DNA of 59,932 nucleotides from Rhizobium sp. Q54. Its GTDB lineage: Bacteria; Pseudomonadota; Alphaproteobacteria; Rickettsiales; UBA1997. The position numbers were made by a program, and so were the translations under genes. The notes under the pieces were generated by a model. The model ran no database searches, was not told the origin of the DNA, and saw only the letters and a list, made by a program, of their open reading frames with translations. The DNA lies in NCBI GenBank assembly GCA_945871805.1, contig CAMBXE010000003.1:1-59932 (forward strand), read 5' to 3'. Below, one piece after another: positions 4,659-44,514 of the stretch. The stretch's first letter is position 1, and each line of letters opens with the position of its first letter.

Positions 4659-4673
4659 TTTTCTTTTGTTGGT

Positions 4674-4748
4674 GGCCCCGCAACAAGTGCGGGGTGACAG
4701 CTGAGAGTAGGTGCTAAAAAGTGTCACCCCGCACTTGTTGCGGGGTCC
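4674..4748. repeat. Family-A REP doublet: GG(A)CCCCGCAACAAGTGCGGGGTGAC + 24-nt spacer + inverted copy
   Basis: Arms at 4674-4698 and 4723-4748; spacer AGCTGAGAGTAGGTGCTAAAAAGT is homologous to the spacer at 24590-24613. Confidence 0.95.
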
Positions 4749-10981: not shown

Positions 10982-10996
10982 TTGCTAATAAAGCTG

Positions 10997-11081
10997 TGGT
11001 ACCTCCGGCCCGACTCGAACGGGCACATCCTAGGGACAATAGATTTTGAGTCTATCGCGTCTACCATTCCGCCACGGAGGC
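10997..11081 (-). tRNA. tRNA-Leu(CAA)
   Basis: GCCTCCGTGGCGGAATGGTAGACGC...CT-CAA-AA loop, long variable arm, GTTCGAGTC, encoded CCA. Confidence 0.95.
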
Positions 11082-11083
11082 CA

Positions 11084-11141
11084 AAGAAATTTGCCAAGAA
11101 ATTTGCCAAGAAATTTGCCAAGAAAATTGCCAAGAAATTGG
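11084..11141. repeat. 12-bp tandem repeat AAGAAATTTGCC, about 4.8 copies, abutting the tRNA-Leu 5' end
   Basis: Units start at 11084, 11096, 11108, 11120, 11132. Confidence 0.9.
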
Positions 11142-11277
11142 TCAGAGGTTATTTCAAGAGAGCCTTACCACTCAAAACCTCTGACCAGTCTAAAAGTAAA
11201 TTCCAAAAGTAAAAAACCTAAAAAGTAAAAATTTTGGGAGGGCGACTGTAGCAAGTGGGAGATTTAAAAGTCAAACC

Positions 11278-11908
11278 GCCACCCCGCATTCCCGAGTGTC
11301 ACTCCGCATTCCCGGCCATCACCTCGCATTCCCGATTGTTACCCCGCATTCTCGACTGTCACCCCGCATTCTCGACTGTCACCCCGCACTTGTTGCGGGG
11401 CCCATCTCGTCCTTGTCAAAGACTTGACTTTGAAATGGACCCCGCAACAAGTGCGGGGTGACAGCTCGGGGTTGATGAGGAGTGATACTCGGGAATTTGG
11501 GGTAACACTCGGGATTACCAGAGTAACACTCCGCATTACCGATTGTTACCCCACATTCCCGGCCATCACCTCGCATTCTCGACTGTCACCCCGCATTCTC
11601 GACTGTCACCCCGCATTCTCGACTGTCACCCCGCACTTGTTGCGGGGCCCATCTCGTCCTTGTCAAAGACTTGACTTTGAAATGGACCCCGCAACAAGTG
11701 CGGGGTGACAGCTCGGGGCTGATGAGGAGTGACAGTCAGGAATGAGTGGCAACACTCTGGATTACACAGGGCAACACTCGGGATTACAGGGCAACACTCG
11801 GGATTACAGGGCAACACTCGGGATTACAGGGCAACACTCGGGATTACAGAGTAACACTCGGGATTACAGAGTAACACTCGGGATTACAGAGTAACACTCG
11901 GGAATGCT
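11278..11908. repeat. Composite locus: two family-A REP doublets (247-bp period) flanked by oppositely oriented 20-bp tandem arrays
   Basis: REP arms 11378-11403, 11437-11462, 11625-11650, 11684-11709; left units ACCCCGCATTCTCGACTGTC; right units GGGCAACACTCGGGATTACA x4 and GAGTAACACTCGGGATTACA x2 plus a partial (11769-11908). Confidence 0.95.
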
Positions 11909-11953
11909 GGAGGACTTGCTGCGTGTGGAACGACAAACTTTATTATTAAAATA

Positions 11954-12547
11954 ATGCAAAAAAATCTTATCGAAAATCTTAGTAAAATCATCAGCAGACT
12001 TCCGGGAATGGGCCCGCGAATTGCGAAAAGAATTGTACTACATCTTGCGACTAACAAAGAAAAAATTCTGCAGCCTCTGCTCGAAAATCTTCGTGCGCTA
12101 AACGAAAAAATTCACGAATGCGAAATTTGCGGAAACATCGACGAGGGAAATATTTGTGCGATTTGTTTAAGTCAAAATCGCGACGAAACTCTACTCTGCG
12201 TTGTCGAAGAAATTGCAGATCTTTGGGCGGTTGAGCGGGCGCAAAATTACCGTGGAAAATATCACGTGCTCGGCGGAAATCTTTCGGCGATTTCTGGAAA
12301 AACTATTCAGGACTTAAATTTAAATTCACTTTATTCGCGTCTAGAAAAAGGCGGAATAGCAGAAGTAATTATTGCCACTAGTGCAACAATTGACGGACAA
12401 ACCACCGCTCATTTTCTTTCCGAAAATTTAAAAGATTTCAAAATCAAAATCACCCGCCTAGCTTACGGAATCCCCGTCGGCAGTGAGCTTGATTATCTTG
12501 ATGAAGGCACGATTGCCATTGCCTTCAAAACACGTTTGGAGTTTTAA
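11954..12547 (+). CDS. recR: Recombination mediator RecR
   Basis: LPGMGPRIAKR, CEICGN...CAIC zinc finger, Toprim CVVEE, GDGQTTA-like DGQTTA, RLAYGIPVGSELDYLD. Confidence 0.97.
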   Translation: MQKNLIENLSKIISRLPGMGPRIAKRIVLHLATNKEKILQPLLENLRALNEKIHECEICGNIDEGNICAICLSQNRDETLLCVVEEIADLWAVERAQNYRGKYHVLGGNLSAISGKTIQDLNLNSLYSRLEKGGIAEVIIATSATIDGQTTAHFLSENLKDFKIKITRLAYGIPVGSELDYLDEGTIAIAFKTRLEF

Positions 12548-24563: not shown

Positions 24564-24639
24564 GGACCCCGCAACAAGTGCGGGGTGACAGCTGAGAGTA
24601 AGTGCCCCAGAGCGTCACCCCGCACTTGTTGCGGGGTCC
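24564..24639. repeat. Family-A REP doublet with 24-nt spacer
   Basis: Arms 24564-24589 and 24614-24639; spacer AGCTGAGAGTAAGTGCCCCAGAGC. Confidence 0.95.
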
Positions 24640-34659: not shown

Positions 34660-37600
34660 GTGTTAACACAGAATTCGCTCACACAAAATCTTGTCAGATT
34701 TTCTTTGATTTCTCTTGTTTTGCTTGTGCTTTTTTCCTGCACAGATTCTGGATGTATTGATGCCGATGATTTTGGGGAATATGAATCGCAAACTATCATA
34801 GTCACTGCAAATGCTGGGCAAGATGCGTGTTCGTACAACGCGGCATTATCAATAATTGATAGCACTCAAGGCTCTGGTATTAAGTCTTGCCTTACTCGGG
34901 GCACAACAACTGCAACGAATGGGAATGGCGTTTCGGAAAGCAGCACTACAGGATGCTACGGCCTCTCCTCCGGAGAATTTCAAACTATTTGCATAAGTGG
35001 TTGCGTGCAAACATGTCTTTCAGCGGTTGGCAGCGCTAGTTCTGCAGGTGCTGAGCCGGCATGGAATTCAACCGACAAAAAAGGAGCTGGTCAAAATTCT
35101 GGCGTTACAATCAAGCCTGGCTCGCAAATTATTGTTCGAGCCGTTGGCTCAATTTCCTTGGGTAGATCAATAGACTACCCGTCTCTTTATTTGATGGCGA
35201 ATAATCCTCGGTCTCACTCTTACAACTCGTCTTGGCAAAATAATTTTTTTGATGTTCGTTCGGGGCAATCGCTAGGAATTAATTTTAGTGGTTTGGTTTA
35301 TCAAGGCGGTAATGGCACTACGTTGCCACTCGGTCAAACTGCCGATGTTGCCGCGCATCCGGAATATCTAAACAATCTCGCCAGAAAATTAGTGGTTTAT
35401 ACCATTCCTCATCCAGAAAATTACGGTGGTTTTGATATAAATAAAACTACGGAAAAAGAGGGTTCGATAACAGTTCCTCTTTGGCCAGATCCGCAGGCGT
35501 GGCAATGCTCTTACAGTGGAACAAGTTTATTGGAATCAACCTGTGGCAATGCATCTTATCGGGGTATTGGTTACAGCAATGTTGTTGATAAAGCGGCCGA
35601 TTCAACATTTCCGATTACTTCCGCGTTGCAATCCTCAATACTCACACAATATGGCGGGGTTATTAGGCGGAATGGAGACGGTTTAAATACCGGCACTTAT
35701 GATCCTTTTGCGGTTACGGCGAATAATGTGATTTGCAATGGAGCCAATGGATCTTGCACAAATATCGCCAACGTTCCAGTAAATCAGGGCCAAATTATTG
35801 GCGACCTCTCTTCTGCAAGTATCGATATTACCAACAGTAACAGCGATGCTTTTAAAGTTTCTTTTCGTTCGTTAACGGGAGATGTGGGATGTGGTTCTTC
35901 CGCTACGCCTCTCATGCTTAGCGTATCTGTTTTGGATTCCCAGAGTAATCCCCTCTACTCCTACAGCTCATCTGTAATAAACACATCTTGGACAAATACC
36001 GTCATAAATCTTGAGTCTGGTCAAAAATTACGCATCGCTACAAATGCAACTAAACACTTTGGAACTGGAGTAAATTGTGGACGAGTTATTGGGATCAGAT
36101 ATTTGAAATATCATGATCTTATCATGCAGCAATCTGGCTTCTTAAGGTTTGCTACTCTCGGCGCACCAGCACAAGCGGGGGGAACAACGTGCACAATCAA
36201 AGGAAGAATAATTAATCCGAGTGGAAGCCACGTAGATAACGGCACATACGGCGCAGATTTTTATGAATATTTGTCGGTAGATCCAATGGCGGCTGGTTTG
36301 TCGGTTCCGTTTTTAGTAAATGGCTCGACTGGTTCGAATTGGGCGCCTGGCATCGGAGCTAGCACAACTCAGGTTTACGTGCGCAAAGGACAAAAAATCC
36401 GCTTCGATCCCGACAGTTGGAATAATACATGGACCTCTTCTGCCGGAGCGAGACAGTGCGGTATCGGCATGACAATGACGATTGATCCGCGTCCGGCATT
36501 ACTTTGTCGTGGTAAGACGAGTGAGATGATGCCTAATCCCAGTTCTGACTGCATTCCAGATATCAATAGTAGCGGTGTTTTAATAGGTTGTCAGGCGTTA
36601 GCGACGAAAGATTGTTCGGATGAAAGTGGTGCGTCTTATTGCCCTGTTGCAGCTTGCGCAGAAACCGTGACATGTTCTGGTAATGGCGTTTCTCCTGACT
36701 ACACAAAAACATCATGTGCGCTCGGCACCGGAGCTTTTTCCGTTGATAGCTGCATTAACTTAAGTTCAAGTAAATGCACCAGTTGTTCAAACAAAAAGCT
36801 CGCTAATGCCAAGTTGCCAGCCATGGTCAGCGTTACAGGAATAGATCAATGCTACGATTTAGAAAATTACACGGGCAAGGCTGAAAATATTCCTCCAAAC
36901 CCATTAACAGACCCATTATCAATAGAAAATGTAAATGATTTTCTTAATGATCCGCTAAAGGCTAAGGGCGCAGTAAAGCTTAATGGGTTTAATGGCAATT
37001 ACGGCAACATCTCTAGTTTTTCAGATACCGGAACTTCGTCTGTCGACAAAAAAGTATATCGGGCTAACTCTCAATATTTCATCAATAGCGATTCGCGACT
37101 TCGCCTCATTGTGCTCGACGGCAATGTAATGAGTAATATTTGGGGATCTTACTCAGATAACACCAGCCCCACCGTAAGTTATAACGGTAATAACGGTATA
37201 AAAATTGGTTTTTCAGGTGGCCTAGAATTTAAGAATGGGACATGGCTGCAGATGCAGCTCTGTAAAGAAAGTTCAAATAGTAACAGCAGTCTAAGTTATG
37301 ATTGTAAAAGCGTAAGCACTCCTACGGATTTTGCCGCAAGTGCTAATCAGCCTGAATTAGTTAATATTACCCTCCCATCGCCCTCTACCCCAATTGGTTC
37401 TTCACCTAGCTTGACAGGCAATTATGCTTTTGATTCCAGCGGCAATCTCTATCGAATTAATCCTGGTTCGGTTGCCGGCGATTGTACTCTTGCGACTCAG
37501 GGCCTTCAAAATAGTGCGGGCTCGATGTTTTACTGCCACACTTACGAATATTATTCTGAGGCTGGTTTTGCAGCTTTAACTCAAAATGGCAGAGATAGCT

Positions 37601-40600
37601 CAACCACAAATGTCGAGAAGTTGCGTTTAACTTTTAAGATTCTCGATCCAGAAATTGCGAATTGTAAATTGACCACAACTGGAGCGGATGATGGCATCAA
37701 GTTAGACAATCCTTATTACAGTAGCTCGGCGACAAACACCGGAGCCACTTGCACATCTGCCGAGATTCCAGGATCTGCCGCGTGCAAAAAACAATTTTAT
37801 TGCGCCAATAAATACAGCAACAATTCCGGTGAATATTACGTTAACGTTAAGGTGAAGTCTACGCATACCGGCTCAGTCTCTAGTGTCATCAGTGCCGTAG
37901 TAAAACCGATTATAGAAGTGATGGACGGCAAGCAAGATGATCCAGCTACTTTGGATAAGAATGAAGCAACGATCGGCCAATCAGAAAGAATTTATAAATT
38001 ACTAATCGCCGATCCGCGCTACCAAGCGATTCTCACCGTAAGTTTGGTGGTGATGATTACCTTCTGGGGCGTGGGTTATTTACTTGGGGTCAGCGAGTTA
38101 AATCACACAGAAATCATTACTCGTGTCTTCAAGATTGGCTTCATTTATTTGATGGTTGGGGTAACTGGGTGGGAGTGGTTTAAAATGTTCTTCGTCGCCT
38201 TCTTCAAGGAGGGGACAGATTACCTATCTTTCATGATGGCCTCTTCCTTCGATGAGTCGCCAGAGCTAGCTGCAGCCATTGAATCTGGTAATCTCTACGA
38301 TAAATCGGTTCTCTTTAGCAGCGTCGACAATGTTTTTAATTTATTCTTTTCGCCCGCGGTGCAGAAGAAAGTTTACGCATTGTTCTTCGCCAGTATTTTT
38401 GGCTGGGCCTATTGCCTAATAATTATGTGGAGCTTTGTGCACTACGTTTACGCAGTCTCGAACGCCATTTTGCTTTATCTCACTGCCCAAGTTTTTATCT
38501 CGATCATGTTTGTGGTGGGTCCGATCTTTTTCGTCTTCATGATTTTCAGTCAAACCAAAGATATGTTTGATAATTGGTTGAAGCAATTAATCGGCTTTTC
38601 GCTGCAACAAATTTTCCTCCTAATCACTTTGGCCTTCTTCAACATGTTGATGTATGAAGTGATCAAGATGTCGCTCGGCTACAAGGTTTGTTGGGATGAA
38701 ATCTGGGTGATGAATCTCGGCATCACCAGAATTTCTCTGATGTCTTTTTGGACGATCGCCTCACTGCCGCCACGCACTAACGCCAATTCACAAGTTGGCA
38801 ATATTGGCAATCCCGAAGGAATTCCTTCGATCTTTACGATTTTATTTATTTGGGTAATCGCCTCGCTGATGGAACAATTTATTGGCTTCATGACTGAAAT
38901 GGCCGCAACTATTTCGGGTGGTTTGAAGGCGACTGAAATGGGCAAGGGAATAGCTGCGATGGCTAGTAAAATTAAAGGAGCCACTGTTGATAGAGCTCTC
39001 GATTACGCCAAAGCTCAAACTGTCGACAGAGTTCTTGATTATGCTGATGATAAACTTTTCGATCATGGAAAGGCGGCCGATGGTAGGCGTGATGATGCTA
39101 CTAAAAAAGATGCTTCAGATGCTGCTAATGCTAATAGCGCGATTGCCGCGGGTAAAGAGGCTGCAAGCAAACATAGAGCAGAGACAGGAGATAGTTCAGC
39201 AGCTGGATCTGCCGCAGCAGCAGCCAAGGGACAAAGAGATCATTTGACGAAAATGGGAATAACAGATGAGAAAGAAATCGACAAAATATTGAACAGCAAA
39301 GGTGCGAAAACTGGCGGAGCTAAAAGCGTAGCTGGGGCTCTTTATAATGCCGCGAGCAACAGAGGAACTATTAACAAATCTGCGGCAGAACAAGCTGCTG
39401 ACGAGACTGGAAATCTCTCAGAAAAAGAGTTCAGCGCAGCGTTGGAAAATGCGACTCCAAAAGGAAGAGAAGATCTTGTTAAGGCACGCAATAGCGGCGA
39501 GAAGCAAGTTGATAGAAGCGCTGCCGGCACAGCTTACGATATTATGGCTGGTGAAACTAAACTTTCAGAACTTGTGGGTAAGAAAGTCTCTTCCGGACTT
39601 AAACAAGCTGGCGAAACATTAAGCACTGGCGTAGGAGTAGCGATTAAAACAGCAACCGGAATTGACGTTGGCGATGTATCAAATGCGCTCGGGCGCGATA
39701 AAGATCGCAACGAAGCAAAAGATCAATTAATAAAAGAAGGATCGATCACTGAGTTAATGCCTGGCACCGAAATGAGCAGAAACAAAGAAGAGAAAGCCTT
39801 GCTCGATGAGCGCACTGCAGAAATTAAAAAGGATAAAAAACCTCCTACTCCAGCTAAAGCAGTAACAACTGGCGGCTCAATTGCTGGGCAACGCGAGGCC
39901 GAACATTTGAATGAGATGGATAAGATTGACGAAGCTGATCACGGTCCACTTTCGAAAGCTATTCGAAAAACGGGACAGCAATTCAGTACTGCCGCTAAGA
40001 GTCTAAATCCAGGAAGCAACAGCAGAAAAAAATTCGCGAATGAAGCAGCAAAAAACCCCGACCAGGCTACTGTCACGGAAAATCAAATGATTGCTGAAAT
40101 TGAAGTCGGCGATAAAGAGATCGGAGAGTTAAAAGTTGCTCGAGCTGATGCAATGAGTGTCGTGAAAGAGAATAAGGGCTCAGTCGATTCTAAAAAAAGT
40201 GAGATCGGAAAATTAAGAGGCGAATATCAAAAACATCAATCCGAGGCCCGCAAAGGTTTATTGCCAAGCGAAACTAAGGATAGTCATTCAAAAGCAGCTG
40301 CGTCGACTCTCTCTAAAATAAAAGAAAAAGAAAAAGAGCTTTATGGCAGCGATGAATATAAAGCTCATCAATCAGCAACCGTCGCGGTGCATCAAATAGA
40401 TTCTAAAATCAGTAGCAAGGAAGCGAAGGGTGACAATATGAAGGGGATTTTCAGTAATATTGAAAATTCAAGAAAGGCCGTAGTAGATGAGGTCAAAAAA
40501 GCGGCTGGCAAAGGAACAGAAGTGCAGAAACAACCACGCTCTTCGGCACATAGAATATTGGAGAATAAAAAAGATATAAACGAAAAAGATAAAAAAACTC

Positions 40601-40863
40601 TAACCAATGCTGGAGAAATCTTCGATAAAATGGCGCACACTAAGAATGAAACGATAGAGGGTAGCCCCGAACATACACAGGCCGAAGAGGCGTTTAAAGC
40701 CTATCAAGGTGCCGAAAATCAAGACGACTTCGACAAATTCGAAAAAGATTACACAATCAGCAAACAAGAGATAAAAGCTGATAAAATGGAGAAAGATTTC
40801 GACAAGCTAAAATCCCCAGAAGATTTCGCCAAATTCTCCAAAGCAAATCCAGTTAAAAAATAA
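34660..40863 (+). CDS. virB6: Giant rickettsial-type VirB6/TrbL T4SS protein (2067 aa)
   Basis: N-terminal lipobox FSC followed by GCIDADDFG; about 1000-aa Cys/Gly/Ser/Thr-rich region; central multi-TM block with IFFVFMIFSQTKDMFDNWLKQLIGFSLQQI; long charged tail. Confidence 0.85.
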   Translation: MLTQNSLTQNLVRFSLISLVLLVLFSCTDSGCIDADDFGEYESQTIIVTANAGQDACSYNAALSIIDSTQGSGIKSCLTRGTTTATNGNGVSESSTTGCYGLSSGEFQTICISGCVQTCLSAVGSASSAGAEPAWNSTDKKGAGQNSGVTIKPGSQIIVRAVGSISLGRSIDYPSLYLMANNPRSHSYNSSWQNNFFDVRSGQSLGINFSGLVYQGGNGTTLPLGQTADVAAHPEYLNNLARKLVVYTIPHPENYGGFDINKTTEKEGSITVPLWPDPQAWQCSYSGTSLLESTCGNASYRGIGYSNVVDKAADSTFPITSALQSSILTQYGGVIRRNGDGLNTGTYDPFAVTANNVICNGANGSCTNIANVPVNQGQIIGDLSSASIDITNSNSDAFKVSFRSLTGDVGCGSSATPLMLSVSVLDSQSNPLYSYSSSVINTSWTNTVINLESGQKLRIATNATKHFGTGVNCGRVIGIRYLKYHDLIMQQSGFLRFATLGAPAQAGGTTCTIKGRIINPSGSHVDNGTYGADFYEYLSVDPMAAGLSVPFLVNGSTGSNWAPGIGASTTQVYVRKGQKIRFDPDSWNNTWTSSAGARQCGIGMTMTIDPRPALLCRGKTSEMMPNPSSDCIPDINSSGVLIGCQALATKDCSDESGASYCPVAACAETVTCSGNGVSPDYTKTSCALGTGAFSVDSCINLSSSKCTSCSNKKLANAKLPAMVSVTGIDQCYDLENYTGKAENIPPNPLTDPLSIENVNDFLNDPLKAKGAVKLNGFNGNYGNISSFSDTGTSSVDKKVYRANSQYFINSDSRLRLIVLDGNVMSNIWGSYSDNTSPTVSYNGNNGIKIGFSGGLEFKNGTWLQMQLCKESSNSNSSLSYDCKSVSTPTDFAASANQPELVNITLPSPSTPIGSSPSLTGNYAFDSSGNLYRINPGSVAGDCTLATQGLQNSAGSMFYCHTYEYYSEAGFAALTQNGRDSSTTNVEKLRLTFKILDPEIANCKLTTTGADDGIKLDNPYYSSSATNTGATCTSAEIPGSAACKKQFYCANKYSNNSGEYYVNVKVKSTHTGSVSSVISAVVKPIIEVMDGKQDDPATLDKNEATIGQSERIYKLLIADPRYQAILTVSLVVMITFWGVGYLLGVSELNHTEIITRVFKIGFIYLMVGVTGWEWFKMFFVAFFKEGTDYLSFMMASSFDESPELAAAIESGNLYDKSVLFSSVDNVFNLFFSPAVQKKVYALFFASIFGWAYCLIIMWSFVHYVYAVSNAILLYLTAQVFISIMFVVGPIFFVFMIFSQTKDMFDNWLKQLIGFSLQQIFLLITLAFFNMLMYEVIKMSLGYKVCWDEIWVMNLGITRISLMSFWTIASLPPRTNANSQVGNIGNPEGIPSIFTILFIWVIASLMEQFIGFMTEMAATISGGLKATEMGKGIAAMASKIKGATVDRALDYAKAQTVDRVLDYADDKLFDHGKAADGRRDDATKKDASDAANANSAIAAGKEAASKHRAETGDSSAAGSAAAAAKGQRDHLTKMGITDEKEIDKILNSKGAKTGGAKSVAGALYNAASNRGTINKSAAEQAADETGNLSEKEFSAALENATPKGREDLVKARNSGEKQVDRSAAGTAYDIMAGETKLSELVGKKVSSGLKQAGETLSTGVGVAIKTATGIDVGDVSNALGRDKDRNEAKDQLIKEGSITELMPGTEMSRNKEEKALLDERTAEIKKDKKPPTPAKAVTTGGSIAGQREAEHLNEMDKIDEADHGPLSKAIRKTGQQFSTAAKSLNPGSNSRKKFANEAAKNPDQATVTENQMIAEIEVGDKEIGELKVARADAMSVVKENKGSVDSKKSEIGKLRGEYQKHQSEARKGLLPSETKDSHSKAAASTLSKIKEKEKELYGSDEYKAHQSATVAVHQIDSKISSKEAKGDNMKGIFSNIENSRKAVVDEVKKAAGKGTEVQKQPRSSAHRILENKKDINEKDKKTLTNAGEIFDKMAHTKNETIEGSPEHTQAEEAFKAYQGAENQDDFDKFEKDYTISKQEIKADKMEKDFDKLKSPEDFAKFSKANPVKK

Positions 40864-40870
40864 TTGAAAT

Positions 40871-41188
40871 ATGGTCAAAAAATTTACCACAAATTGTGAT
40901 TTCGGTGGGCAGAAAGCGCCAATCGATCTTTATGTTGGAAACCCAGCTTCGGGCTCTCATCCGCTTGGTTTTCAGAGTAAGTGGTTAGCAACTTCTAAGA
41001 GTGGAACGATCCCTTCGGAAATTATGAATTCATTCTCTAAATTAGTGGAGATTTCAGAAAAAAATCGCGTGCCATTCGAGGATCTTTGCGAATATGTAAT
41101 CGCAGAACTCAGATCCAAAAACACGGTTGTTGAAGATGCCAACAAAGCCACCGAACTTTCCAAAGATTCAGAAAAAAATGACAAATAA
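40871..41188 (+). CDS. DUF2610-family protein (typical virB6 neighbour in Rickettsiales)
   Basis: KKFTTNCDFGGQKAP..LYVGNP...HPL.FQ..WL...IP...NS...L..I...N.VPFEDLC.Y. Confidence 0.75.
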   Translation: MVKKFTTNCDFGGQKAPIDLYVGNPASGSHPLGFQSKWLATSKSGTIPSEIMNSFSKLVEISEKNRVPFEDLCEYVIAELRSKNTVVEDANKATELSKDSEKNDK

Positions 41189-42116
41189 CATACATGTTGC
41201 CGTGCTCATGGGCGGCTGGAATTCAGAACGCGAAGTTTCTTTGCGTTCTGGTCAAGCTGTTTTTGAGGCGCTTAACAAGTTGGGTTACAAAGCAACTAAG
41301 ATCGATTTTTCACGCGAGATTTTTACGCAGTTAGCAGAAGTAAAGCCAGATATCGTCTTCAATGCATTGCACGGGCAATATGGCGAAGATGGCCGAGTTC
41401 AGGGCGTTCTCGACATTCTACAAATTCCCTACACCCACTCCGGAATTGTCGCTTCTGCGATTTGCATGGACAAGGTTTTGACTAGAAAAATCTGCACAAC
41501 CGTTGGCGTAAAATCGCCGCATTACGAAATTTTGAAGAAGGGCCTGGGGGATAAACAGGACGCGCAAAATAAAGAAAAAATTTTCGCCGTTGGCAAGCCT
41601 TTTGTGATTAAGCCAATTCATGAAGGCTCATCAATTGGTGTCGAAGTTATTTTACAAAATACCCAATTCGATTTTACAAAATATGAGTGGAAATATGGCG
41701 ACGAAATCATCGTTGAAAAATATTTAGCTGGGCAAGAAATCCAAGTTGCGGTGATGGATGGTAAGGCTCTAGGCGCAATTGAAGTAAGGCCGCATGGCTT
41801 GTTCTACGATTACAAATGTAAATACACCGCAGGCATGACTGACTACATTATGCCCGCCGAAATCAGCGCCGAAAAATATGCGGAAGTTTTGGATTTAGCT
41901 GAGCGCTGTCATTCGGTTGTTGGTTGCCGAGGAGTCAGCAGAATCGATTTTATTTTGAACAATAAAGACGGCGGCGACGATAATTTTTATTTGCTCGAAA
42001 CCAACACTCATCCCGGTTTTACCGCGACTTCTTTAGTGCCAAAAATTGCGAAACATGTTGGAATTTCTTTTGAAGAGATCGTTGAGTTTTTAGTAAAAAA
42101 TGCGCGCTGCGAATAA
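41178..42116 (+). CDS. ddl: D-alanine--D-alanine ligase
   Basis: GGWNSEREVSLRSG, LHGQYGEDG, GSSIGV, YDYKCKY, ETNTHPG. Confidence 0.96.
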   Translation: MTNNIHVAVLMGGWNSEREVSLRSGQAVFEALNKLGYKATKIDFSREIFTQLAEVKPDIVFNALHGQYGEDGRVQGVLDILQIPYTHSGIVASAICMDKVLTRKICTTVGVKSPHYEILKKGLGDKQDAQNKEKIFAVGKPFVIKPIHEGSSIGVEVILQNTQFDFTKYEWKYGDEIIVEKYLAGQEIQVAVMDGKALGAIEVRPHGLFYDYKCKYTAGMTDYIMPAEISAEKYAEVLDLAERCHSVVGCRGVSRIDFILNNKDGGDDNFYLLETNTHPGFTATSLVPKIAKHVGISFEEIVEFLVKNARCE

Positions 42117-42130
42117 GGAATGACGTTAAT

Positions 42131-42412
42131 GGACCCCGCAACAAGTGCGGGGTGACAAATTCTAGACTAGAGTTACAGGGCAACACTTCTAGGAGTTGCA
42201 GGGTAACCTCTCTAGAACTGCAGGGCAACACTCTCTAGAGCTGCAAGGTGCACTCTCTAGAGCTGCAGGGTAAAACTTCTAGAGTTGTGGGTAACGCTTC
42301 TAGGACTGCAGGGTAAACACTCTCTAGAATTGCATGGCGATACTTCTAGAGTTGCAGGGCGAAACTCTAGAGCATTACTCCAATCCGTCACCCCGCACTT
42401 GTTGCGGGGTCC
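42131..42412. repeat. Family-A REP pair enclosing nine 21-24 bp CTAG-containing tandem units
   Basis: Arms 42131-42156 and 42387-42412; CTAG at 42162, 42167, 42189, 42212, 42235, 42257, 42279, 42300, 42324, 42346, 42367; consensus CTAGAGYTGCAGGGYAACACT(C)T. Confidence 0.95.
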
Positions 42413-42431: not shown

Positions 42432-43286
42432 ATGGAAAAAAAATTTAGCTCTATTCTCAAAAACTTCCTCCTGACCAATCCATTTTTACGTCGCGTAAGA
42501 ATTTTTCTTAGTCAAAAAGTTAAACCGATCCTGATCAAGTTCGGCGTGTCTTTGGTCGCGTTGCTCATTTTGATCTTCATCTCATTAAAACTTTTTAAGC
42601 CGGACATTTTGCAGAAATTTTATTTGCAATCTCGTGTCTATTTTTTCACGCAACTCAATTCAAATTACGGCGAGTCAGCACAAATCAATATCACTGGCAA
42701 CGGCCGCATTCCTAAGGAGCAAATCATTGCCGCGATCAATAAAAGTAAAAAAAGTAAGCCAGAATTTTTGATCCAAAACTTAGTCGACGAAATAAAAACT
42801 CAGCTGCCTTGGGTGAGTCAAATTACAATTACACGCAGTCTTCCCGACACTTTAAACATTGTGATTACCGAATTCGTGCCTTTCGCAATTTGGCAAAATG
42901 ACGGCGGAAAATATTTGATCGACAAGGATGGAAATATCGTTCCCTTTGAAGATCAGGAAGAATTTCGCGATATGGTGACATTATCGGGAAAGGGCGCTAA
43001 CACTCACGTCAGATCACTTTTTAATATTTTTGTGATTGATCCAAAATTAAGTGAAAATGTTTTTTCAGCAACTTGGGTTGGAGATCGCAGGTGGGATATT
43101 CGTTTTGAAAATGGACTTCTAATTAAACTGCCGGAGACCAATATTTCTGAGGCTTGGCAACGTTTGATTAAAATTAACAACATGCCCGGATCACTACTCG
43201 GGCTGAAAATCATTGACCTACGCATTGCCGACAAAATTTATCTCGAGTACAACGATTCAGTCATTAAAGAATTAAAAAATGTCTAA
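42432..43286 (+). CDS. ftsQ: Cell division protein FtsQ
   Basis: Single TM, POTRA region (LPWVSQITITRSLPDTL), VGDRRWDIRF, IDLRI; start moved to ATG 42432. Confidence 0.9.
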   Translation: MEKKFSSILKNFLLTNPFLRRVRIFLSQKVKPILIKFGVSLVALLILIFISLKLFKPDILQKFYLQSRVYFFTQLNSNYGESAQINITGNGRIPKEQIIAAINKSKKSKPEFLIQNLVDEIKTQLPWVSQITITRSLPDTLNIVITEFVPFAIWQNDGGKYLIDKDGNIVPFEDQEEFRDMVTLSGKGANTHVRSLFNIFVIDPKLSENVFSATWVGDRRWDIRFENGLLIKLPETNISEAWQRLIKINNMPGSLLGLKIIDLRIADKIYLEYNDSVIKELKNV

Positions 43287-44514
43287 AAAATTACAGAAAG
43301 GAAAAATCGTCGCGTGCCTTGATATGGGATCGTCCAAGCTGGTTTGTGTAATCGCAGCGATCAATGGCGAGGATGTAAAAATTCTTGGTTACGGCCACAA
43401 AGAATCGCGCGGAATTTTGGCAAGTGCAATTTCCGAAATGCGTTTGGCGCAAAAATCAATTACCAACGTTGTTGCTGAAGCAGAGCGCATGGCCGGCTTT
43501 AATATTGATCAGTTGCTCGTAGGAATTTCTGGAAGTCAGATCATTTCAACTCATTACGAAGTGAGCTGCAAAGTCTCTTCCGACATCGTGAAAAATTCTG
43601 ATATCATTAATCTCACCAACAAAATTCGCGGCGACTTTAAGAAGAAAAATCGTGAAATAATTCACTTAGTTCCTTTGCAATATAGGCTCGATGATTCCAC
43701 GCCAATCCTAAATCCGCGCTACATGACTGGCGAAAAACTTCACGCCAAATTCCACGTTGCCTACACTTCACAAACTACGATCAGAAATATTGAAAGTTGT
43801 CTGAAGCACTGCCAGTTGTCGGTGAATAGCTACATCGCCGAACCTTACGCCTCAGGTCTTTCATGCCTCTCTGACAACGAGATGAATATTGGCACTTTGC
43901 TGATTGATATTGGAGGAAGTTCGACTTCATTTTCCTTGATTCACGAAGGAAAATTACTCTACGTCGGCAATTCAAAAATCGGCGGAGGTCATATCACTAA
44001 AGACATCTCAACTATTCTCGGCATCAGTGCGCAAGTAGCAGAAAAAATTAAAAATCTAAATAGCTCATTGTTGATTTCGCCGATCGAAGAAAGAGAGGCG
44101 ATTAAGTTTAAATTCTCCGAAGATTACGAAGAGCAAAATATGGTGAGCATCACGCGCATCGAGCTTCGCGATATTATTGCTTCAAGGCTCGAAGAGTTGT
44201 TTGAATCGGTAAAATCCGTTTTAGAAAAATCCGGTGTGCCGTTCTACATGCTTGGAAATATTGTGCTCACTGGCGGCGTTTCTGCGACCGTCGGAATCGA
44301 TAAACTAGCCGCCGAAATTTTCCGAAAAAATGTACGAATCGGTTATCCAAATAAATTTGAGAAAGTTCCATCTGCCATCCTAAACCCAGCAAACTCATGC
44401 TCTCTAGGCATGCTATCTTTCCTTCGCAACCTTCACATGCGCGAAAAAATCAAAGATGGTTTTGAAAGTAGAAATAGCTGGTTCCGTAAATTTATTGAGA
44501 AGTTGGTTGGATAG
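43279..44514 (+). CDS. ftsA: Cell division protein FtsA
   Basis: LDMGSSKLVC, LIDIGGSST, GGGHITKDI, VLTGG. Confidence 0.93.
   Translation: MSKKLQKGKIVACLDMGSSKLVCVIAAINGEDVKILGYGHKESRGILASAISEMRLAQKSITNVVAEAERMAGFNIDQLLVGISGSQIISTHYEVSCKVSSDIVKNSDIINLTNKIRGDFKKKNREIIHLVPLQYRLDDSTPILNPRYMTGEKLHAKFHVAYTSQTTIRNIESCLKHCQLSVNSYIAEPYASGLSCLSDNEMNIGTLLIDIGGSSTSFSLIHEGKLLYVGNSKIGGGHITKDISTILGISAQVAEKIKNLNSSLLISPIEEREAIKFKFSEDYEEQNMVSITRIELRDIIASRLEELFESVKSVLEKSGVPFYMLGNIVLTGGVSATVGIDKLAAEIFRKNVRIGYPNKFEKVPSAILNPANSCSLGMLSFLRNLHMREKIKDGFESRNSWFRKFIEKLVG

Follow-up and report, generated by a model that had tools for sequence, protein, structure and literature searches.

The tandem array that lies between the genes ddl and ftsQ, at positions 42131-42412 of the 59,932-nt stretch of DNA analyzed here (the window, to which all coordinates without a prefix refer), is real, and it is one old member of a family of arrays found throughout the genome rather than a special locus. 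It consists of a tail-to-tail doublet of a hairpin, a Ssn-related motif (SRM), set in a lineage-specific spacer, and the interior of this doublet has been expanded by tandem duplication. The arrays of the family lie on the side of the hairpin that bears its GTCA tag, which by analogy with published work would be the side where the nuclease Ssn cuts. The origin that we favor, with moderate confidence, is a duplication at the boundary of the hairpin, seeded by an Ssn nick, by microhomology or by both and followed by slippage, with no dedicated function for the result. The window is a single contig of a metagenome bin, called G000 below (1.40 Mb, 42% GC, 94.7% complete), and the homologues of its FtsA are named as MAGs of Alphaproteobacteria or Rickettsiales.

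The features of the locus are collected in table 1. The left hairpin arm begins after the 14 nt that follow the ddl stop codon; it reads GGACCCCGCAACAAGTGCGGGGTGAC on the plus strand and GTCACCCCGCACTTGTTGCGGGGTCC on the minus strand and, together with its flanks, fits the published SRM search pattern. The right arm has a C before its tag, which gives CGTCAC, and both arms turn the tag toward the array. They are perfect inverted 26-nt repeats, extended by the adjoining TTAAT/ATTAA to an inverted repeat of 31 bp, and they enclose 230 nt in which TRF recognizes a period of 22 bp (9.3 copies, 75% matches). Each unit combines a copy of the local linker AAATTCTAGA, in the form CT[CT]TCTAGAG, with the hairpin's inner half in degenerate form (TTGCAGGGCAACA versus GTGCGGGGTGACA). 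The last piece of the interior, CTCTAGAGCATTACTCCAATCC, is the equivalent of the 24-nt spacer of the simple doublets. A preliminary description of this DNA had already placed nine CTAG-bearing units between hairpin arms, inside a ddl-ftsQ-ftsA cluster; the sequence, the parsing of the units and TRF bear out the first statement, and the Pfam matches that support the gene coordinates bear out the second. Directly upstream of ddl (window 34660-41188) there are a DUF2610 gene and a gene for a giant 2067-aa VirB6/TrbL protein, so that a Rickettsiales-style type IV secretion component is found beside the cell-division cluster.

Table 1. Coordinates, in the window, of the ddl-ftsQ array, its neighboring genes and the related loci used for comparison
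Feature	Position	Strand	Basis
ddl (D-Ala-D-Ala ligase)	41127..42116	+	Pfam Dala_Dala_lig_C (3.6e-46), Dala_Dala_lig_N
Left hairpin arm, family-1 SRM, CGTC-type REP	42131..42156	-	family consensus, 0 mismatches
Proximal linker AAATTCTAGA	42157..42166	+	sequence inspection
Nine tandem units, 19-23 bp each	42167..42364	+	TRF, unit parsing and statistics
Fourth unit, copy-number hot spot	42231..42252	+	comparison of ten assemblies
Terminal spacer CTCTAGAGCATTACTCCAATCC	42365..42386	+	comparison with simple doublets 4673-4748 and 24564-24639
Right hairpin arm, family-1 SRM	42387..42412	+	exact reverse complement of left arm
ftsQ	42432..43286	+	Pfam POTRA_1, FtsQ_DivIB_C
ftsA, anchor for retrieving strain variants	43279..44514	+	gene annotation, homologue search
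Sister locus: two head-to-head hairpin pairs, 20-bp arrays outward from tag sides	11278..11908		TRF, strain comparison
Unexpanded tail-to-tail doublet, 24-nt spacer	4673..4748		doublet comparison
Unexpanded tail-to-tail doublet, 24-nt spacer	24564..24639		doublet comparison

The 11 CTAG sites reported in that description are indeed present, and their frequency (47.8 per kb versus 1.48 per kb genome-wide) makes this array the densest CTAG cluster of the assembly; a further array of this type ranks second. Over the whole genome CTAG is scarcer than base composition predicts (observed/expected 0.40), yet a trinucleotide model accounts for its frequency (1.04). The CTAG richness is a by-product, the mere amplification of a local linker. 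A homology with the array near 11.8 kb had also been proposed. The exact 15-mer on which it was partly based, TTACAGGGCAACACT, is confirmed by a genome-wide count to occur only in the 42-kb array and, three times, in the 11.8-kb array, and the 11-mer CAGGGCAACAC is likewise restricted to these two arrays within the 1.4-Mb assembly. The homology stands as far as the common hairpin half is concerned; it does not extend to the other half of the units, which in each array copies the local linker (TCTAGA versus CTCGGG). Three substitutions are common to both arrays, and they have frequencies of 16%, 14% and 24% across the half copies of all such arrays; since they are among the commonest transitions there, the shared changes may have arisen in parallel.

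The resemblance of the units to the end of the hairpin is significant. Their consensus agrees with the last 13 nt of the hairpin at 9 positions, for which P = 0.034 when phase and strand are left free and about 0.001 when the phase is the predicted one. Agreement of 8/13 or better with the hairpin end is reached by eight of the nine units, all in register and on the strand of the arm, whereas the opposite strand of the array yields zero such matches; hits of at least 9/13 number 4, against 0.11 expected. The substitutions in 287 half copies are ordinary transitions with no strand bias. A strand-asymmetric process such as deamination was considered as the source of the divergence and was rejected, G>A and C>T having similar frequencies (0.163 and 0.146 per site); the divergence of the units is ordinary, transition-biased decay. 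As the nine half copies recovered at this locus by a chain search carry 3-5 mismatches apiece, with no gradient along the array, we consider the array to be old.

The hairpin itself belongs to a known kind of element. SRMs, the Neisseria motif NTS and the GIY-YIG nucleases that act on single-stranded DNA are the subject of Chenal et al. (PMC11893778); the Ssn nucleases and their motifs had no description before that paper of 2025. Ssn binds the hairpin solely in single-stranded DNA, on one strand, and cleaves upstream of its CGTCA end, in Neisseria about 3 nt upstream; the role of Ssn outside Neisseria was stated to be still to be elucidated (PMC11893778). The most abundant hairpin of G000, which we call family 1 (TGTCACCCCGCACTTGTTGCGGGGTCCAT), fits the SRM pattern HGTCWYN(0-2)YYVSBRHN(0-5)WNVSBRGN(0-2)RNCYNB of these authors. 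This pattern finds 129 sites in G000, as opposed to 2 for a backwards control: 80 are of family 1, about 40 are near-canonical NTS-like sequences (CGTCATCCCCGCG.AGGCGGGGATCCAG) and a few are of a third family. The layout GTC-ACCCCGCA-CTTGT-TGCGGGGT-CC is conserved in 108 copies, with GTC before the palindrome and C after it; roles for both positions of the SRM have been described (PMC11893778). The same hairpin has the tag (T/C)GTC, the loop CTTGT and the tail CCA(T) of the CGTC-tagged REPs, a class defined in an earlier study that reported it to lack a transposase (PMC3733652). The NTS-like family, the second of the three (family 2), occurs at window 53178 and at some 70 further places of G000 (69 copies), comes very close to the NTS consensus of Neisseria and is almost never accompanied by arrays.

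The term REP, used in the preliminary description, therefore stands for the layout of a CGTC-tagged REP and not for the RAYT type. A classical REPIN or BIME cluster, mobilized and amplified by a RAYT (Y1 transposase), could also take the form of a short palindrome, paired in inverted orientation and found in over 100 copies, and tandemly reiterated clusters of REPs are known (PMC3116915, PMC3733652). Such an origin is very improbable here, however, because a Pfam search reveals no Y1_Tnp gene in either G000 or the related species G011, the lone hit (21.6 bits) falling within a 1594-aa NAD-glutamate dehydrogenase, and because the Y1 genes that congeners do possess are not flanked by the family-1 hairpin. 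Furthermore, the GTAG tag of the REPIN/RAYT system is absent, the tag of family 1 being (C/T)GTCA, which recalls the CGTC-tagged elements reported without a transposase (PMC3733652). The family-1 hairpin is an SRM, or CGTC-type REP, with a probable GIY-YIG nuclease gene of its own, rather than a REP of the RAYT type.

The 26-nt family-1 hairpin has 114 copies in G000 at up to 3 mismatches. They include about 35 convergent pairs, whose inner lengths extend from 24-26 nt, in the simple doublets, up to 532 nt, and nearly all the pairs with long interiors contain tandem arrays. The intermediates between spacer and array that the preliminary description had anticipated are thus plentiful genome-wide. 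In these arrays the unit joins 4-11 nt from the start of the local linker to a degenerate form of the hairpin's inner half (GTGCGGGGTGAC); at some loci mirror arrays start from both arms, and at others the units are 51-54 nt long and include a whole hairpin. A symmetric chain-finder detects at least one, two or three in-phase half copies on the tag side of 39, 28 and 23 of the 114 hairpins, respectively, and this strongly supports the earlier suggestion that a single array-building process has acted at independent loci. On the tail side of the same hairpins the corresponding numbers are 0, 0 and 0. Only 0.35% of random starts give rise to chains of three or more half copies. Among the 121 arrays of period 12 or more that TRF identified in the whole genome, about 55 adjoin the tag (TGAC) end of a hairpin and none adjoins only the non-tag end. 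Enclosure between two arms, in contrast to what was first supposed, is not required: head-to-head pairs, such as that at 11378/11437, send their arrays outward. The enclosure is incidental, and what remains constant is the side of the hairpin.

Along the arrays the half copies decay with distance from the hairpin, the mean number of mismatches being 1.7 at the first rank and about 3.5 past the eighth, and the trend of mismatches with rank is positive in 21 arrays versus negative in 5 (sign test p = 0.0025); the 42-kb array is an exception to this gradient. The array-building capacity is not evenly distributed among the hairpins of G000. Two or more chained half copies accompany 28 of the 114 family-1 hairpins, 1 of the 69 of family 2 and 2 of the 27 of family 3, and such a contrast within one genome indicates that array building is a property of family 1 or of its nuclease and not of GC-rich hairpins generally. 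Arrays are also present in at least three further species of the genus (G011, G010 and G038). The modal step length is 21 in G000 (96 of 189 steps) and also in G011; the idea of a fixed 21-bp "ruler" is nonetheless weakened by the periods of G038, which range from 17 to 28 and follow the length of the linker.

At G000:C24:10237-12678 two hairpins 2.4 kb apart, with inward arrays of 16 and 3 copies of a 21-bp unit, bracket an open frame of 504 codons with internal repeats of about 38 aa (...DPKRAVSILKQAKEAGSQEAIK...); this motif-gene-motif layout resembles the NTS-gene-NTS arrangement of Neisseria, and the product may be a secreted repeat protein. The commonest form in G011 is a head-to-head hairpin pair (loci L040 and L041, G011:C3:2700-3700 and 11150-12150) with a fixed 45-nt gap between 23-nt matched cores. 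This pair forms part of an inverted element of greater length (…CCACCACACT-hairpin…hairpin-AGTGTGGTGG…), and this points to a more extensive mobile unit in that species. Many contigs of G038 stop a few bases past a hairpin (L104-L107), so that much of the breakage of assemblies in this genus is attributable to the arrays.

In addition to UvrC, G000 has five small GIY-YIG reading frames (three open and two with a stop). One of them, at G000:C33:255-557, encodes a 101-aa protein that scores 59 bits on Pfam GIY-YIG, and its size agrees with that of the Ssn family (cd10448), which consists of single-domain GIY-YIG proteins of about 94-105 aa. The gene has family-1 hairpins on both sides (at 251 and 577), with tags that point outward and arrays beyond them, and the hairpin contributes the last eight codons of the gene and its stop (ATG GAC CCC GCA ACA AGT GCG GGG TGA). 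The contig that carries it (G000:C33:1-2057, 2 kb) consists of this gene and its flanking arrays and nothing else. The ortholog in G011 (C31:10256-10561, 82% identity) is likewise flanked by hairpins on both sides, while the paralogues in G003, G009, G035 and G038 (53-59% identity) are flanked by near-canonical NTS motifs. The 1195 homologues of the C33 protein are mostly 93-105 aa long and are named GIY-YIG nuclease, COG2827 or K07461. Its only matches among PDB sequences are weak ones, to the UPF0213 structures 1ZG2 and 1YWL, and the NCBIfam and PDB sequence searches did not resolve an Ssn subfamily. By its size, domain, gene context and paralogy, we infer that the C33 protein is a candidate Ssn, and the hairpins that border its gene suggest that it pairs with family 1.

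The cut sites predicted for both arms by mapping from the published Ssn face into the 42-kb array; the unit boundaries here lie 2-13 nt upstream of the tag, and the Neisseria cut, at about 3 nt, is an extrapolation to this genome. Across 44 congeners the cognate gene is intact in G000, G011, G041 and G036 and broken in five species that have 0-8 hairpins. It was undetected in the copy-rich G038, G046, G012 and G044, the assemblies of which are fragmented; G038 has 130 hairpin copies, and young arrays as well, and G046 has 58.

The comparison of strains reveals that the array is still changing. The FtsA of the window was used as an anchor and retrieved 19 contigs, and ten places from separate samples were compared. 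In these ten independent assemblies the gap between ddl and ftsQ measures 315, 339 or 363 nt, classes that correspond to 9, 10 and 11 units with 11, 12 and 13 CTAG sites; the longer alleles repeat the fourth unit once or twice more, in steps of 24 bp, and the arms and the other units are identical. A comparison of copy number among strains had been suggested in the preliminary description, and the array proves to change between them in steps of whole units, as a VNTR does. An artefact of the assembly of a short-read metagenome bin might be suspected, as contigs of G000 and of related bins often break at arrays, but we regard this as having a negligible probability: every unit is reproduced in all ten assemblies, and the assembly k-mer of 141 exceeds the variable stretch (48-72 bp), so that the differences in copy number are genuine and the array is a VNTR. 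Between uppP and recR, the sister locus is still more variable, with 1-2 hairpin pairs, 3-8 units on the left and 0-9 on the right in different strains, and in one divergent strain it has just three old and degenerate proto-units. In the same region, at window 11084-11139, there is a 12-bp tandem repeat AAGAAATTTGCC (4.7 copies) of strain-variable copy number, adjoining an apparent tRNA gene on the minus strand (about 10995-11080).

At the ddl-ftsQ junction of 19 congeners the ddl stop codon usually overlaps the ftsQ start (ATGA), as it does in G009 (87% identical), and hence the spacer in G000 is derived. No hairpin array was found at this junction among the 19 congeners. Three close species, G035, G040 and G049, have an unrelated spacer of about 140 nt; the possibility that this is a decayed doublet was considered and set aside, as 179 of 1000 shuffles reach the observed score of local alignment.

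These comparisons bear on whether the array has a function. Phased units of about 22 bp, each with the 8-bp palindrome CTCTAGAG, could be a series of protein-binding sites or an RNA element that sets the expression of ftsQA, and the position of the array inside an essential operon would be in keeping with such a role. The predicted fold of its RNA (-138.7 kcal/mol) is also far beyond that of shuffled sequences (z = -9.2); however, most of this stability comes from the 31-bp duplex of the arms. The palindrome, moreover, is the amplified local linker, and other arrays are mostly without palindromic linkers. The coexistence of three copy-number alleles and the mere 75% identity of the units argue against a tight functional constraint, and most of the 19 congeners manage without any ddl-ftsQ spacer. 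Neither a sigma-70 promoter nor an intrinsic-terminator consensus was found in the array, and Rfam gave no credible match (a single hit, 17 bits versus a gathering score of 80). We therefore think a functional array quite unlikely, and its effect on the cell is probably neutral or slightly disruptive. As G000 encodes RNase III, it is plausible that this enzyme, if the array is transcribed, could cut the 31-bp terminal stem and thereby uncouple ftsQA from ddl.

How, then, could such arrays be built? The duplicated segment of about 22 bp comprises the local linker, the GTCA tag and the adjoining arm of the stem. In the mechanism to which we give a moderate preference, the trigger would be a cut made by the predicted cognate Ssn, the small GIY-YIG nuclease, in single-stranded DNA just upstream of the tag. 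Mis-aligned re-synthesis would then be aided by the built-in direct repeats AGTG/AAGTGC, which are located at the junction of loop and stem and again in the center of the spacer. Later gains and losses of units would be due to slipped-strand mispairing or to unequal exchange between similar units. Nicking by Ssn would confer the specificity of side, and slippage would account for the remainder.

Such expansion would be tolerated in a genome with no detected MutS and MutL. The domains of these proteins (PF00488 and PF01119) were not found in the 94.7%-complete G000 assembly, and RecA is present. MutS is missing in 33 of the 44 congeners, including all those that bear hairpins, and present in the other 11. 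We rejected its absence as a cause, since many hairpin-free congeners are also without MutS and the MutS-positive species may be a single clade; the absence is permissive at most.

Slippage during replication might accomplish all of this without any nuclease. The hairpin would stall the polymerase and the built-in repeats would seed the duplication of 17-28 bp. Microhomology is visible at the ends of arrays: a young array of G000 terminates in a 5-nt AGTGC overlap, and the period of the G038 arrays is the sum of 13 nt of hairpin and the distance that separates it from the first AGTG of the linker. The young arrays of that species are found with no cognate ssn detected in its fragmented assembly. 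The gain of units at 42231-42252 is internal to the array and driven by homology rather than placed beside the hairpin, and MutS and MutL have not been found. The same mechanism was proposed for hairpin-bearing VNTRs of Wolbachia (PMC3287509), and microhomology alone could account for both the founding events and the specificity of family. What such slippage does not easily give is the polarity, 39:0, which is hard to obtain by microhomology alone. Families 2 and 3 have similar GC-rich stems in the same genome and almost no arrays. In addition, the perfect 21-bp arrays of G011 have no microhomology at their junctions, and one and the same 21-nt unit, which begins 2 nt upstream of GTCA, is found there at loci whose spacers differ. 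Pure slippage is an unlikely explanation of the arrays, although one with appreciable weight.

The components of the mechanism that we favor, in which nick or microhomology seeds a duplication that slippage then extends, can be compared with systems already known. The SRM/NTS elements (PMC11893778) have the same GTC tag, GC-rich palindrome of 7-8 bp, 5-nt loop and C after the palindrome; they too number in the hundreds (here in three families) and are associated with a motif-flanked GIY-YIG gene of about 100 aa, and the SRM/Ssn family shows enrichment in symbionts, Rickettsia and Wolbachia among them (PMC11893778). Tandem arrays, on the other hand, are not described in that paper, the text of which does not contain the word "tandem"; here, unlike in published SRMs, there is amplification of units of tag, first stem arm and linker, which is confined to the cleavage side and to one of the three families. 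The CGTC-tagged REPs (Di Nocera et al. 2013, PMC3733652) also have a tag at one end, a 5-nt loop, a CCA tail, an alphaproteobacterial host and no dedicated tyrosine transposase. They occur mostly as head-to-head dimers, with tail-to-tail dimers and grouped elements being rare (PMC3733652), whereas expanded tail-to-tail dimers are common in G000 and what is repeated there is a fragment of the REP instead of whole REPs plus flank. REPINs and BIMEs (Bertels and Rainey 2011, PMC3116915) similarly comprise inverted doublets that form long hairpins, and ordered tandem clusters, but these clusters repeat whole REPINs with their flanks, and G000 has neither RAYT nor GTAG.

Two further systems share the variable interior. 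The BOX elements of the pneumococcus, boxA-(boxB)n-boxC (Croucher et al. 2011, PMC3049150), have ends that pair and an internal module that varies in tandem number; they are dispersed, can be used as VNTRs and can sit within transcription units. The module boxB is nevertheless the same throughout its family and unrelated to the ends, in contrast to the unit described here, which joins the terminal repeat to a local linker and is specific to its locus. The Wolbachia repeats VNTR-105 and VNTR-141 (Riegler et al. 2012, PMC3287509) and the repeats of Ehrlichia ruminantium are, like ours, of a Rickettsiales type, intergenic and hairpin-containing, with a copy number that differs among strains and for which slippage has been proposed (PMC3287509). 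Their periods of 105-141 bp, their whole hairpins and their few loci distinguish them, as does the lack of a polar, genome-wide association with a dispersed motif. The motif, the nuclease family and the doublets are thus of known kinds; polar arrays of half hairpins are described neither by Chenal et al. nor in the papers on REPs that we consulted.

A stronger version of the favored mechanism would make the arrays the footprints of Ssn action, the mis-aligned repair that follows each cut adding one unit of cleavage site plus half hairpin. Because split half-sites can reconstitute a cleavable motif in vitro, each new unit could be a further substrate, and the process would become a self-reinforcing, directional builder. 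We put this forward tentatively and consider it rather doubtful. Should the footprint reading be true, it would be a new route for the generation of tandem repeats and the first read-out of Ssn in a genome outside Neisseria.

The genome described here offers a natural experiment, in which three families of motif and several ssn paralogues are present against one repair background, and only one family builds arrays that are strictly one-sided and still changing in wild populations. In practical terms, the arrays can be used as strain markers for an uncultured Rickettsiales-like lineage, and they account for many of its contig breaks. More generally, they raise the questions of how hairpin repeats affect the DNA that surrounds them and of whether a site-specific nuclease of single-stranded DNA may drive the formation of tandem repeats.
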